From the UHGV virus genome UHGV-1783985: a stretch of 38,400 bases of DNA. One strand, given 5' to 3'. The DNA is from a virus. The notes under the pieces were generated by a model that worked only from the letters and a program-made list of their open reading frames with translations, was not told where the DNA came from and made no database searches. Below, piece by piece: positions 30,301 through 38,400 of this stretch; position 1 is the stretch's first letter, and every line of letters starts with the position of its first letter. The position numbers and the translations under genes were made by a program.

Positions 30301-30845
30301 TGCGGATAAATCACACTATAGAAGTTGTCTTTTCCACCCGCTGTAATCAATGTGCTTATGATTTTTGCAAAATCGTTGCGTTGGAACACGCTACCGATGT
30401 CGGAAGTTAGCAGGATGATGTTGCCTTTGGCATATGTAGAAACCAACTGTTCGAGCGAGAGACGCGGTACAAAGTAGAACTGTTCTCGTGTGTTGGCCGC
30501 CGTCATTAGTTCGCAGATGTCTCGATATCCCTGCTCATTTTTAATTAGAGCGGTAAAGGAGTAGTTCCGCCCACGCTCTAATGATTCCATACATCCCATA
30601 GACTCTTTAGCAAGTTTAGCCCGGTGCTCGTATGTGGGATCATCAACAATGTTTAGTTTCACACCACAAATAACCGCCATGTCGTCACCAGCGGCACGTT
30701 GTAGTGGAATAACACTCGCAATATTCATGCTATCTGCCGAAATTACAGCGGTGTAGCCAGCTTCTCTGGCAATCTTCACCGCGTTTTCTGCTTTTAGAGC
30801 CGACTCCCCAAGAGAGAAGTCAGTTCGAACCATCAGAGCCTTCAT
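27327..30845 (-). CDS. dnaE: DNA polymerase III alpha-type replicative polymerase (DnaE family)
   Basis: 1172-aa ORF; size and overall layout match the DnaE family; the N-terminal PHP-like region (MVRTDFSLGESALKAENAVKIAREAGYTAVI) lacks the canonical His pair and may be degenerate. Confidence 0.8.
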   Translation of the reverse strand: MKALMVRTDFSLGESALKAENAVKIAREAGYTAVISADSMNIASVIPLQRAAGDDMAVICGVKLNIVDDPTYEHRAKLAKESMGCMESLERGRNYSFTALIKNEQGYRDICELMTAANTREQFYFVPRLSLEQLVSTYAKGNIILLTSDIGSVFQRNDFAKIISTLITAGGKDNFYSVIYPHPTPFYDQINVRAMKVASALKIEPVAFYPAYYESIDDADIKDIAHMVTNNIKIDQPHRLRIPHQRDNAVNGRRHLLEALKAFSVRMDVPVTAAMASTTQDTIIDACTWRWHELPPALPKMADDEPATLMKLAVAGLRKRLTTKEFGYTPPASENRVYVERLKYEMDTLTRLGFCGYFLMVRDLMNHSRETGIPVGPGRGSSAGSLVAWCIGITNVDPIRHGLLFERFINPERLDLPDADLDFSQARRHEVIEYLNERYGEDYVAGIPNFTYLGAASALRDTARIYGVESADMAVSKELKNVEDDSLPLEELREQLASLDKYATKYPDAFNAACKLQSLMRGFGRHAAGMIVAGVPLTERTPVERRGDARCIAFDKRYCEAMGLIKLDVLGLATLDLLDSAKRYIKENTGEDINLDAISLEDRKVLDGFAAGYTQGVFQLESGPMRKLLKDLGGGIEPMSFKTVVATTALFRPGPIQSGMLDDYVSVAKGFMTPESLHPVLDELTAETNGVILYQEQTMNATRLLAGFTMAEADGVRSAIGKKNMEKMKSMGEKFIVQAQAGWIDVELEDGTTQRIHRAEHFKCEDGTLKTVEEALEHGAKLPINAVRVTASHPGLSEMKAKEIWTAFEKNGAYQFNKSHSVAYSLISYQSMWLKTHYPAEFFAAALTILGEDKHQGLVKDALTYGIRVLPPDVNVSSNRIEIRTLEDGSQVLYAPFSAVKGCSENGCQAIMRAREKVGGKFESLAQFEEAVEKRSCNSRVRESLQKVGAFASIEPGSLPATDPERLRDQAELMGNLVIDAVKASRPFEMNPKRSAEINVLMTRMAAEMSLGDELIRPSIGIKPKIMIILDNANGNDARTGYFMENGYDDFKAKLLTAGDLRMGDIYVTGVCKKMKDKEKDYTKDEIGQFTDFMREEINLVRPTYVLTCGSRATALFNNKNKPSDLVGRKEYLPDLDVTVFYGFNPNILYFRPEEGERLEAILADVAETIKT

Positions 30846-36073: not shown

Positions 36074-36460
36074 ATGTCTGAAAACAAAATTGAATTTATT
36101 GAAAGTCGCTATGCTGCTGTTATTGCAGGGCTGATTGAATCCTCATCTATGAGTCAGGCACAAATAGCCAGACTTATTGGTTATAAAAATGCCAACAACC
36201 TTTCTTTAATTAAAAGTGGCAAAATTCCTTTGCCTATCGATAAGGTTCGTCCGCTGGCGCTGGCACTGGATATTGAGCCAAGTCGCCTTATGATGATGGT
36301 TCTGGAAGAACGCCAACCTGAACTCGCAGCATTTTTATACAAAGAAGGCACCGCTCCTCTTAACGAGGACGAAAAACAGGTTCTTGCTGCATATAACGAG
36401 CGATTCGGTAAAGAGAAAGGCGCATCACAAAAGGTTGTTGAGGCCATAAAGTCTCTATGA
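36074..36460 (+). CDS. Helix-turn-helix transcriptional regulator (XRE/Cro-CI-like)
   Basis: 128 aa on the plus strand; HTH-like segment SQAQIARLIGYKNANNLSLIKSGK; convergent with and overlapping the integrase stop by 6 nt. Confidence 0.6.
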   Translation: MSENKIEFIESRYAAVIAGLIESSSMSQAQIARLIGYKNANNLSLIKSGKIPLPIDKVRPLALALDIEPSRLMMMVLEERQPELAAFLYKEGTAPLNEDEKQVLAAYNERFGKEKGASQKVVEAIKSL

Positions 36461-37558
36461 AAAATTTACACGAATAAGCTCTGTTGATAGACGATCTCCC
36501 TTGAATTTGTGGTCAATTTCGTCTAAATCCGGTTGCTCTACGATTGATGCGATGTACGTCGAGAAACTTTCTAAGGCGTCTCGCATCTCGTCCATATAAT
36601 CGTGTCGATCGTAGACCCGATCTATCCCCTCAAGACTGTGGTTCATGATTTTGCGTGATACCTCCTGGCTTATGCCTAATGCTGGGAAGTAACTACGCGC
36701 AGTACGGCGCAAATCTCGGGGTGTAAATGGCTCAAGCTCCATCAGTTCTGGTCGGTCCAGAATACGACGTAATGCCTGGGCTATTGCCACTTTAGACATA
36801 GGAAGGTCTTTCCCGATTTTTTTATTCGAAGGCACAAGCCACTGGCTGTCTTTGCCGTATTCGAACAATTCTTCAATGCATGTGCGCATTAATGTGCTTA
36901 AAGGCAGCGAATGCTCACGTGCTGACTTGTTTCTCTTGCCTTGATTCCAAACCCCACGCTTAAGATTGAACTCACTTTTTTTAGCCCGCAGAACTTCGTC
37001 AGGTCGTCTTGCCGATACAAGGCATAGCCTGGCCGCCCATTTTGTACCAGCGCACACATTGAAGTAGTCCCATATATTCCAGAACACCCATACCTCTGCG
37101 TCGGTCAGCTTCCGCTCGCGAGGCGTGGGCTTTGCGCCACCGGCAACTTTGTTCAGTGACATATCGTTTAACGGTGACACGTCGATCATCCCCTGGAAGG
37201 CGCACCAGCTGAGGAACTGCTTCATCAGAGAGAAAACGCGGCGGCCCATAACAATTTTGCCATCCAGTATTAGTGGGTTGACCAGTTGGTTCACCATGAA
37301 CCTATTAATATCACTTACTTTTACGTCGGCAATGTGCGGCAAAACATGTATCAAAATACAATGAACAGCGATCTCTGGCCGACGTCTTGTTATCAGCAGA
37401 GATAAGCGAGTGAATAACATGAATGCGTCCGAGAATCTCATGTCATTGCTGACCTGGGAGATCATAACGGCCTGCATTTGAGATGCTCTTTCGAGATACT
37501 CAATCGCCTCTTTTGAGGTGTTCTCCGCAGCGCGTGCTCTGTCAAAGCTATTTTTCAT
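36455..37558 (-). CDS. Tyrosine recombinase / phage-type integrase
   Basis: 367 aa; catalytic-domain-like blocks RRPDEVLRAKKSEF, FTPRDLRRTARSYF and C-terminal IDRVYDRHDY (candidate catalytic Tyr). Confidence 0.7.
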   Translation of the reverse strand: MKNSFDRARAAENTSKEAIEYLERASQMQAVMISQVSNDMRFSDAFMLFTRLSLLITRRRPEIAVHCILIHVLPHIADVKVSDINRFMVNQLVNPLILDGKIVMGRRVFSLMKQFLSWCAFQGMIDVSPLNDMSLNKVAGGAKPTPRERKLTDAEVWVFWNIWDYFNVCAGTKWAARLCLVSARRPDEVLRAKKSEFNLKRGVWNQGKRNKSAREHSLPLSTLMRTCIEELFEYGKDSQWLVPSNKKIGKDLPMSKVAIAQALRRILDRPELMELEPFTPRDLRRTARSYFPALGISQEVSRKIMNHSLEGIDRVYDRHDYMDEMRDALESFSTYIASIVEQPDLDEIDHKFKGDRLSTELIRVNFS

Positions 37559-37656: not shown

Positions 37657-37711
37657 AATGATTCCATACATAGTAGGTATGGAATCATTTTGACGTTGTT
37701 TTTTGAATTTT
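37657..37711 (+). terminator. Plus-strand intrinsic terminator-like hairpin
   Basis: 12-bp perfect stem AATGATTCCATA / TATGGAATCATT with 9-nt loop, followed by TTGACGTTGTTTTTTGAATTTT. Confidence 0.45.
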
Positions 37712-37735: not shown

Positions 37736-37763
37736 GGGAATAAAAACGGCTCCTGTGAGCCGT
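37736..37763 (-). terminator. Intrinsic terminator downstream of the glutaredoxin gene
   Basis: Hairpin AACGGCTC-CTGT-GAGCCGTT followed on the minus strand by TTTTTATT, immediately after the glutaredoxin stop. Confidence 0.6.
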
Positions 37764-37768
37764 TAAAA

Positions 37769-38014
37769 TCAGAGGGTGCTGACGTATGCAGCCAGTTCTG
37801 TGTATCCGCCAATCGGCTGGCCGTCGATCAGTACCTGTGGGATAGTCTCTACCGGTTTACCAACAATTTCACTTAGTTTTTCCTTGTCGATACCGGCTGT
37901 GGTGATGTCGATGTACTCATAATCACCGCAGCCATGCCCCTTTAGTTGCTTTGCCAGCTCGACCGCACGTTTGCAGTAAGAGCAGTTATCTCGTCCGTAG
38001 ATAGTGATCGTCAT
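37769..38014 (-). CDS. Glutaredoxin-like protein (NrdH/NrdC-type redoxin)
   Basis: 81 aa; MTITIYGRDNCSYCKRA with CxxC active site and glutaredoxin-like C-terminal region VETIPQVLIDGQPIGGYTEL. Confidence 0.8.
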   Translation of the reverse strand: MTITIYGRDNCSYCKRAVELAKQLKGHGCGDYEYIDITTAGIDKEKLSEIVGKPVETIPQVLIDGQPIGGYTELAAYVSTL

Positions 38015-38058
38015 TACTTCTCCTTACAAAGTTCGATTTGACTATTTCAGTTACAAAA

Positions 38059-38085
38059 AAGGGGCCGAAGCCCCTTTGAATTTTG
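38059..38085 (-). terminator. Intrinsic terminator downstream of the tRNA cluster
   Basis: GC-rich hairpin GGGGCTTCGGCCCC (minus strand) followed by TTTTTT. Confidence 0.7.
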
Positions 38086-38230
38086 CGCTGACAGAAGAGT
38101 TGCTGGGATGTTAGTAAGCTATGGTAAGAACGTCTGCAGTAATTGTCTATCACAGCGTTGAGCGGTCTGGTTTATGTTAGCGGAGTCTTAATCTGGGTGA
38201 TTAAAAGGCCAAACCGCTCAACGCTGTGGC

Positions 38231-38317
38231 TGGCGGAGAGTAATGGAATCGAACCATCATCGCTTGCGCAATGGGACGGTTTTCAAGACCGTTTGAGCAC
38301 CATGCTCCCTACTCTCC
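38231..38317 (-). tRNA. tRNA-Ser (anticodon UGA), long variable arm
   Basis: Minus-strand sequence GGAGAGT...ACGGT-CTTGAAA-ACCGT...GGTTCGATTCC...ACTCTCCGCCA folds as a cloverleaf with 7-bp acceptor stem, anticodon loop CU-UGA-AA, long variable arm and encoded CCA. Confidence 0.8.
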
Positions 38318-38325
38318 AATTGTTG

Positions 38326-38400
38326 TGGTGCCGGTTAACGGACTTGAACCGCTGGCCATTCGCTTACAAAGCGACTGCTCTACCAACTGAGCTAAACCGG
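38326..38400 (-). tRNA. tRNA-Thr (anticodon UGU), 5' end just beyond window edge
   Basis: Minus-strand sequence CCGGTTTAGCTCAGTTGGTAGAGC...GTTCAAGTCC...AACCGGCACCA; D-loop and T-loop consensus, anticodon loop UU-UGU-AA; first acceptor nucleotide lies past position 38400. Confidence 0.75.

Follow-up and report, generated by a model that had tools for sequence, protein, structure and literature searches.

The window (the whole stretch of DNA analysed here: 38,400 nucleotides, virus genome UHGV-1783985) is a phage-plasmid of the SSU5/pHCM2/pLF82 type. Near one end it carries part of a tRNA cluster on the minus strand, followed on that strand by a long hairpin, a trailer that ends in an intrinsic terminator, and co-oriented genes. 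In minus-strand order the features are:

38326..38400, minus strand: tRNA-Thr(UGU) of the same cluster, truncated by the window end (ARAGORN, Rfam)
38231..38317, minus strand: tRNA-Ser(UGA), encoded CCA ending at 38231 (ARAGORN, Rfam)
38209..38228, minus strand: hairpin 5′ arm CACAGCGUUGAGCGGUUUGG, with family box ACAGCGUUGAG (repeat search and folding)
38171..38208, minus strand: 38-nt hairpin interior, with a small 8-bp hairpin on its 5′ side (38186–38206), then a single-stranded segment
38180..38189, minus strand: loop motif AAGACUCCGC (plus strand: GCGGAGTCTT), conserved and mostly unpaired
38151..38170, minus strand: hairpin 3′ arm CCAGACCGCUCAACGCUGUG (repeat search and folding)
38145..38150, minus strand: AUAGAC directly 3′ of the stem (alignment of relatives)
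38078..38144, minus strand: trailer spacer, ACGGCAGACGUUCUUAACCAU ... UAGCAAC ... U-run ... CAGCGCAAAAU, conserved, its structure without consistent support
38055..38077, minus strand: intrinsic terminator of the tRNA operon, AAAGGGGC-UUCG-GCCCCUUU plus U-run (direct reading)
37769–38014, minus strand: glutaredoxin ORF, downstream of the terminator and co-oriented with the hairpin
36455–37558, minus strand: tyrosine integrase ORF, ∼600 bp from the hairpin and co-oriented with it

The two arms are an inverted repeat of 20 nt each with one mismatch; the plus strand has C·A there, the minus strand G·U, so that the stem in minus-strand RNA has 20 contiguous pairs (−41.6 kcal/mol; z = −10.4 against shuffles). 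The hairpin is single-copy in the window. A preliminary description of this DNA had reported a perfect stem of 16–17 bp around a loop of about 44 nt, directly downstream of tRNA-Ser on the minus strand. The placement is right, the stem starting 2 nt past the encoded CCA, and 16 bp are indeed perfect (CACAGCGTTGAGCGGT at 38151–38166, with its exact reverse complement at 38213–38228); the repeat extends, however, to 20 nt per arm, and the interior measures 38 nt (38171–38208) instead of 44. We also agree with the description that the hairpin is not a tRNA (ARAGORN and Rfam call only tRNA-Ser and tRNA-Thr), that no T-run follows it (AUAGACA adjoins the stem instead), and that a terminator lies beyond it, which by direct reading is real and occupies 38055–38077 of the minus strand. 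In 200 first-order Markov simulations of the window, searched for local perfect inverted repeats, none reached 16 nt, the longest being of 15 nt and found once; this result and the compensatory changes found in relatives (below) together exclude a chance palindrome.

The terminator reads GGGGC-UUCG-GCCCC plus U6 on the minus strand and lies ∼70 nt from the stem, AUAGACA being followed by a ∼65-nt spacer. A simple terminator pattern scan missed it because three U were counted as stem. The hairpin itself was rejected as an intrinsic terminator, since AUAGACA follows its stem and the actual terminator stands ∼70 nt further on. A second terminator-like hairpin, AACGGCUCACAGGAGCCGUU plus U-run at 37745–37764 of the minus strand, comes directly after the glutaredoxin ORF. 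The product of the integrase ORF matches only the generic Phage_integrase family. At 37657–37689, ∼100 bp upstream of the integrase ORF, ATGATTCCATAC-ATAGTAG-GTATGGAATCAT consists of 12-bp inverted repeats separated by 7 bp, resembling a lox/dif core, and is a candidate binding site for a recombinase or repressor. The 12-mer ATGATTCCATAC recurs at 30581–30592 of the window and in five further places in the related Escherichia phage Cyrano, including an equivalent inverted pair; its flanks are largely shared, with AATGATTCCATACAT in most copies.

The region has matches in Escherichia phage Cyrano (the pLF82 phage-plasmid), in CMS-2020a and in 668 PLSDB plasmids, of the SSU5/pHCM2 type, whose hosts are Escherichia, Klebsiella, Enterobacter, Salmonella, Citrobacter, Cronobacter, Shigella and Raoultella. 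Among 5426 complete Escherichia coli genomes the trailer occurs in 249 (4.6%), at no chromosomal place and with a median of 1 copy. A host origin was therefore rejected, there being no chromosomal copy in those genomes, as was a dispersed repeat of the REP, ERIC or MITE kind, the element being found once per genome (median) and on plasmids only. The trailer interval is without annotation in all records examined.

Relatives were gathered with anchors on the tRNA-Ser body and on the spacer, so that the hairpin itself was not selecting. The anchor scans gave 92 loci, with 49 unique trailers and 24 unique hairpins; a spacer-anchor scan of the genome collection returned mostly chance matches, plus Buttiauxella and Kluyvera elements. 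The last tRNA before the hairpin is tRNA-Ser in the E. coli and Klebsiella types and tRNA-Asn in the pHCM2, Enterobacter, Citrobacter and Raoultella types. Whichever tRNA is last, the hairpin is co-oriented with the tRNAs, and 2–3 nt separate it from the CCA in 21 of 24 unique variants. Cronobacter-type elements lack the adjacent tRNA and have up to three stem mismatches. Three Klebsiella loci (L005, L006 and L007) have a conserved non-coding spacer of ∼145 nt between tRNA-Asn and tRNA-Ser; the same spacer, on the tRNA-Asn side, is also found in a Cronobacter-type locus without tRNA-Ser (L088), there between tRNA-Asn and the hairpin.

Rfam 15 (including tRNA, C4 antisense RNA, YrlA and tmRNA) was run on the window end and on the Cyrano tRNA region, the RNA family scan that the preliminary description had proposed, and nothing reached the gathering threshold for the hairpin. 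The best hits over the interval, to hairpin-shaped microRNA families, are far below it: mir-957 with 24.9 bits (threshold 66) and, on the Cyrano copy, MIR2646 with 17.7 bits (threshold 245). A tRNA or pseudo-tRNA was rejected, no cloverleaf being detected by ARAGORN or by the tRNA covariance model.

The hairpin is real and evolutionarily maintained, its pairing kept by compensatory changes. Pairing holds in 99% of the cells of the 20-bp stem across the 49 unique trailers. At two positions both partners have changed, U-A having become C-G in 13 sequences and G-C having become A-U in 17 (unique sequences that are not independent events), and three further pairs show a one-sided change to wobble. 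No shuffle of 500 matched the covariation score of the stem, which collapses when the partners are slid.

The pairing also tells which strand folds. Stem position 17 is U·G in 48 of the 49 sequences, which would be C·A on the opposite strand. When 65 unique hairpins of the family described below were oriented by the nearest tRNA, their stems held 109 G·U against 14 A·C, again counted over unique sequences and not over independent events. G·U pairs thus lie overwhelmingly on the tRNA strand, which points to folding of the transcript or, less likely, of that DNA strand. There is a counter-case: C·A at pair 8 in the Enterobacter and Cronobacter types, where the wobble falls on the other strand. 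Since G·T is also the mismatch that disturbs single-stranded DNA least, a hairpin of DNA is not strictly excluded by this bias.

Selection for pairing is accompanied by conservation of the whole interval. The conserved stretch runs from the tRNA to the U-run of the terminator and ends exactly there, the DNA beyond being unrelated between relatives. Between ten lineage representatives the arms are 91–92% identical and the terminator 97%, against a mean pairwise identity of 46% for the loop; within the loop AAGACUCCGC stands at 84%, and outside the stem AUAGAC is at 100% (with rare single-base variants within the full set of 49 sequences) and the spacer segments at 77–93%. The small hairpin on the 5′ side of the loop differs in sequence per lineage and is then followed by the same, mostly unpaired AAGACUCCGC, which is nearly invariant across the 49 unique trailers and has a predicted unpaired probability of 0.56–0.78. 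Most relatives have a U-run upstream of the GC-rich terminator with its U-tail. RNAalifold and inspection supported no second conserved stem-loop in the trailer spacer. A sigma-70 promoter in the spacer (TAGACA-17-TACCAT) was rejected, since a 3–4-nt indel changes the spacing of its hexamers between lineages, and none was recognised upstream of the tRNA cluster in Cyrano.

The window's own trailer (38079–38144) is the most diverged of the E. coli type: identity to the closest PLSDB plasmid is 94.6% at most over 38085–38232, and to E. coli RefSeq plasmids 95.6% at most over 38053–38232. Its internal U-run is broken, with UCUUCUGU in place of UUUUUU. The DNA right past the trailer terminator (38015–38054) is wholly different among related phage-plasmids, and the gene that follows is glutaredoxin in the window, an extra ORF in Cyrano and others elsewhere; this region and its equivalents look like a hot spot of insertion or exchange bounded by the terminator.

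The preliminary description had offered a stable small RNA or a processing site. Neither is contradicted, and selection on the folded tRNA-sense strand is in line with both: the compensatory pairs, the excess of G·U on the tRNA strand and the end of conservation at the terminator U-run are compatible with either. For the small RNA, the hairpin would be the structured 5′ domain of a stable, trans-acting RNA from the 3′ external transcribed spacer (3′ETS) of the tRNA operon, like 3′ETS-leuZ of E. coli. The 20-bp stem would protect its 5′ end, the U-run and terminator would bind Hfq, and targets would be paired by the unpaired AAGACUCCGC (with its anti-Shine–Dalgarno-like CUCC) or by the conserved spacer. 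tRNA 3′ETS sponges are an established class, and the hairpin has the position of one, between the last tRNA and the operon terminator; as with 3′ETS-leuZ, that interval is conserved as a unit, from the tRNA end to the U-run. Segments without supported structure are 77–100% identical between lineages, against 46% elsewhere in the loop; AAGACUCCGC is predicted to be mostly unpaired in every lineage, and the U-run and U-tailed terminator are present in most relatives. Searching for antisense targets, with GCGGAGTCTT in the window and by blastn-short of the reverse-complemented trailer against Cyrano, found nothing beyond chance, which counts against this reading: the window has GCGGAGTCTT-like sites about as often as chance predicts, and complementarity to the complete Cyrano genome does not exceed chance either, the best exact match being of 12 nt, with ∼2 such matches expected. 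Moreover, the trailer is ∼180 nt and dominated by its 20-bp stem, unlike the ∼50 nt of 3′ETS-leuZ, and the phage genome yielded no complementary partner. In the window the internal U-run is broken up. Two relatives (L003 and L016) keep the tRNA and hairpin with everything past the stem replaced, and in pJN2-26 the sequence is replaced from ∼35 nt past the stem, so the hairpin is separable from the spacer and terminator, which some hairpin-keeping relatives have lost; and paralogous hairpins have other loop motifs and no terminators behind them. We regard a 3′ETS-type small RNA as unlikely, though it is the main alternative and is compatible with processing.

These paralogues belong to a wider family, which temperate enterobacterial phages carry beside tRNA clusters and in leaders of early operons. 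A covariance model (R1) trained on alignment A6, whose 26 sequences are unique hairpins plus short flanks, finds paralogues at E of about 1e-5 in the tRNA region of the same elements. One, at 38632–38753 of Cyrano (L141), has a 20-bp stem and lies ∼270 nt upstream of tRNA-Asn, a placement conserved in pHCM2 and in Klebsiella, Enterobacter, Citrobacter and Buttiauxella elements; a weaker family-like hairpin at 38472–38560 of Cyrano contains AUGACUCCCG in its loop. Phage D6 has a hairpin with a 23-bp stem between tRNA-Thr and tRNA-Ser and a degenerate homologue directly after tRNA-Ser, which repeat finding at the DNA level misses, two of its pairs being G·U in the tRNA sense. In CMS-2020a a degenerate member stands directly behind tRNA-Thr. 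All of these members have (C)ACAACGUUGAG / CUCAACGUUGU(G) as their stem base, and the distal part of the stem covaries. We define the ACAACGUUGAG-box family by the box on both arms, at least 17 paired stem positions, a covarying distal stem and G·U on the transcribed strand; the window hairpin has all four.

Some observations on annotation belong here. Upstream of tRNA-Asn in Cyrano, 38240–39020 is a non-coding stretch of ∼780 nt dense in strong hairpins, among them a perfect 11-bp hairpin at 38447–38470, and no sigma-70 consensus promoter was found in it. The hypothetical ORFs CYRAN_40 (Cyrano 39144–39356) and mEp460_037 (L262, 1022–1390) run antisense across tRNA genes or family hairpins and are probably spurious calls over structured RNA. 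In phage D6 (L004, MF356679.1; 1524–2229) GenBank places tRNA-Ser, tRNA-Thr and tRNA-Asn on the plus strand, and ARAGORN all three on the minus strand.

Lambdoid members were found by scanning IMG/VR for the box on both arms, followed by similarity searches. A cI-like S24 repressor gene stands 380–460 nt upstream of them on the same strand, and operator-like repeats adjoin them; this placement holds in five prophage loci, whose repressors are only 31–37% identical to that of locus L159, and phage mEp460 has a member in the equivalent position (similarity search). Klebsiella phage ST16-OXA48phi5.2 carries a degenerate copy downstream of a late tRNA cluster, between Q and the holin gene. In all five lambdoid loci the G·U-rich strand coincides with that of the repressor gene. 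Oriented by tRNA and by repressor gene, the bias shows that the folded strand tracks local transcription in three unrelated genome contexts. In the family pool of 32 unique stems, with GAAA in place of the loops, both partners change in 10 of 19 pairs, pairs 1–10 barely varying, and 83 cells are compensatory as against 25 ± 4 in shuffles; the paired fraction of the pool is partly built in, through ascertainment bias, because members were kept only with at least 17 positions paired.

The strand bias and the covariation bear on whether the element instead acts as DNA. It might be a strand-specific hairpin in single-stranded DNA (for recombination of the attC or CTX type, or for priming as an ssi) or a pair of palindromes (the box contains CAACGTTG) to which a dimeric regulator or the integrase nearby binds. 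In favour are a stem base of conserved, almost palindromic sequence, an integrase gene ∼600 bp off, variable cargo that adjoins the trailer with a breakpoint exactly at the stem edge in one lineage, and the tolerance of DNA hairpins for G·T pairs. Yet the distal stem covaries, something not needed by two independent operators; the strand that folds is linked to the direction of transcription in all three contexts, and the breakpoints of the variable cargo differ between lineages. The integrase is of a generic phage type, family members occur in phages without it, and a better candidate for a recombinase or regulator site is the separate one at 37657–37689. Likeness to integron attC is considerable: an imperfect inverted repeat in the range of 60–140 nt with conserved base and variable centre, folding of one strand, GTTRRRY-like and RYYYAAC-like heptamers, and a place beside variable cargo and a tyrosine recombinase gene. 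Set against attC, however, the heptamers come in the opposite order, extrahelical bases are absent from the stem, the integrase does not resemble IntI, the choice of folded strand goes with transcription, and the element adjoins tRNA genes or leaders instead of cassette ends. An attC was accordingly rejected (GTTGAGC ... GCTCAAC in that order on both strands, a perfect stem, and an integrase matching only generic Phage_integrase), and a DNA element of any kind we hold to be very unlikely.

The lambdoid members raise a further possibility, a processive antitermination RNA like put of phage HK022, here allowing read-through of the strong terminator into the cargo genes. These members closely follow the early-left promoter region, their loci gave no recognisable N-like protein, and the window hairpin precedes a terminator and then co-oriented genes. 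The put RNAs are ∼70 nt and consist of two side-by-side stem-loops forming a V (PMC9378689). With one 20-bp basal helix around small hairpins, the window element is unlike this V, and on that ground it was rejected as a put RNA proper (single basal helix versus two adjacent stem-loops; PMC9378689). Nor did the lambdoid loci yield a second copy beyond the rightward promoter region. A put-like role is thus hardly to be credited.

The near-constant distance from the tRNA suggests yet another reading, in which the helix mimics the stacked acceptor and T arm of a tRNA and RNase P or RNase BN/Z cuts at its 5′ edge, 1–3 nt after the CCA; the last tRNA would thereby get the 3′ processing normally provided by a downstream tRNA. 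The gap of 2–3 nt in 21 of 24 unique variants is near the 2–8 nt that separate tRNAs within the cluster, and RNase P does process non-tRNA hairpins, namely the precursors of 4.5S RNA and of the C4 RNA of phages P1 and P7. On the other side, AUAGAC and not RCCA stands behind the stem, covariance models of tRNA and C4 have no match, and neither the lambdoid-leader members nor the paralogue upstream of tRNA-Asn is preceded by a tRNA. We consider cleavage of this kind quite unlikely.

Our preferred reading, to which we give about an even chance on the sequence evidence, is that the hairpin is a cis-acting RNA for processing or for marking a boundary, most likely an RNase III site, and at the same time the 5′ domain of a conserved trailer RNA of ∼180 nt. 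The family hairpin intervals are probably transcribed and non-coding, and the hairpin would be co-transcribed with the tRNAs. A duplex of 20–22 bp abutting the CCA end of the last tRNA would be a processing or boundary signal, most likely cut by RNase III, dimeric and specific for double strands. A cut within the stem would free a short 3′ trailer on the tRNA, and such trailers are trimmed exonucleolytically in tRNA maturation. It would also separate the tRNAs from the sequence that follows, here a conserved tail of ∼100 nt ending in the intrinsic terminator. As only 2 nt lie between CCA and stem, there is no single-stranded room for the usual cut by RNase E.

Processing hairpins in polycistronic phage transcripts are an already known kind of element, and so are tRNA-operon trailers; phage lambda for example has an RNase III hairpin in its N leader. 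The window hairpin resembles known RNase III hairpins (the lambda N leader and T7 early R sites; rRNA stems, metY-rimP) in being a near-perfect duplex of about two turns in a probably transcribed intergenic region, in the sequence that paralogues of one genome have in common near the presumed recognition region, in its dyad core with central C-G/G-C, and in having family members apparently at the lambdoid early-left leader. We take these lambdoid members to occupy the position of the lambda N-leader hairpin; since Pfam, PHROGs and tblastn gave no N-like identity for the ORF that follows them, ‘N-leader position’ is a positional analogy only. To our knowledge the lambda RNase III site has no sequence similarity to our hairpin. 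Unlike RNase III processing hairpins, moreover, the window hairpin abuts a tRNA CCA and has conserved unpaired loop motifs and a tail.

The assignment to RNase III would follow from geometry and symmetry as well as from this analogy. RNase III is a symmetric homodimer that accommodates ∼22 bp of double-stranded RNA; it favours certain base pairs near its staggered cuts, and the two pairs enclosed by the cuts are usually G-C or C-G (PMC6212723). The 20 contiguous pairs of the window stem fall in the ∼20–22 bp that RNase III requires of a duplex (PMC6212723); Klebsiella variants extend to 26 stem positions, a few mismatches included. The family core CAACGUUG has an 8-bp dyad symmetry centred on C-G/G-C. 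A change in one half of the dyad removed the symmetry from the E. coli variant, CAGCGUUG; in the pHCM2 variant, CAGCGCUG, the symmetric position is changed too and the symmetry restored, a single event that is only suggestive.

AAGACUCCGC, the AUAGAC tail and the spacer are conserved above the needs of a pure cleavage site. This excess points to an additional or different function of the hairpin or trailer, so that the trailer, or the upper hairpin if excised, may have a second role of its own. Other structured non-tRNA RNAs are co-located and co-oriented with phage tRNAs: species 1 and 2 (RNA C and D) of T4, and the C4 RNA of P1 and P7, in whose setting the presence of family members in D6, a P1-like phage, is a further likeness. 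With its single long basal helix and no match to Rfam C4, however, the window hairpin differs from the C4 antisense RNA, and its resemblance to the stable RNAs of T4 is presumably one of position only.

A broader and more tentative reading, which we think possible but doubtful, is that ACAACGUUGAG-box hairpins are an unrecognised, widespread class of phage cis-RNA, read by a dimeric factor and punctuating polycistronic transcripts, with loops acting in trans. The class would span SSU5-like phage-plasmids and D6/P1-like and lambdoid phages, and recognition would be sequence-specific; these parts we hold as tentatively as the whole. No less doubtful is its last part, that hairpin RNAs are also released and that their conserved loops (AAGACUCCGC; YCACAGAG) serve, for example, as regulators or as decoys against host defences that target tRNA or RNA. 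The open-access literature that we searched holds no mention of the box sequence or of an SSU5/pHCM2 small RNA, and the family, its loop motifs and its placement at the ends of tRNA clusters appear to be undescribed. Beyond the preliminary description, the locus holds a member of a hairpin family with a sequence-conserved stem base, a conserved trailer of ∼180 nt and a nearly invariant, mostly unpaired loop 10-mer.

SSU5/pHCM2-type phage-plasmids are common in clinical Enterobacteriaceae. The family of box hairpins is a candidate for a new Rfam entry and flags spurious ORF calls over structured RNA. Should the hairpins be processing signals, that would account for the defined 3′ ends of phage tRNA clusters inside long co-directional transcripts, and the shared box would be a handle for finding equivalent signals in lambdoid leaders. 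If the trailer or loop motifs act in trans, these phage-plasmids would carry a regulatory RNA that is expressed together with their tRNAs.
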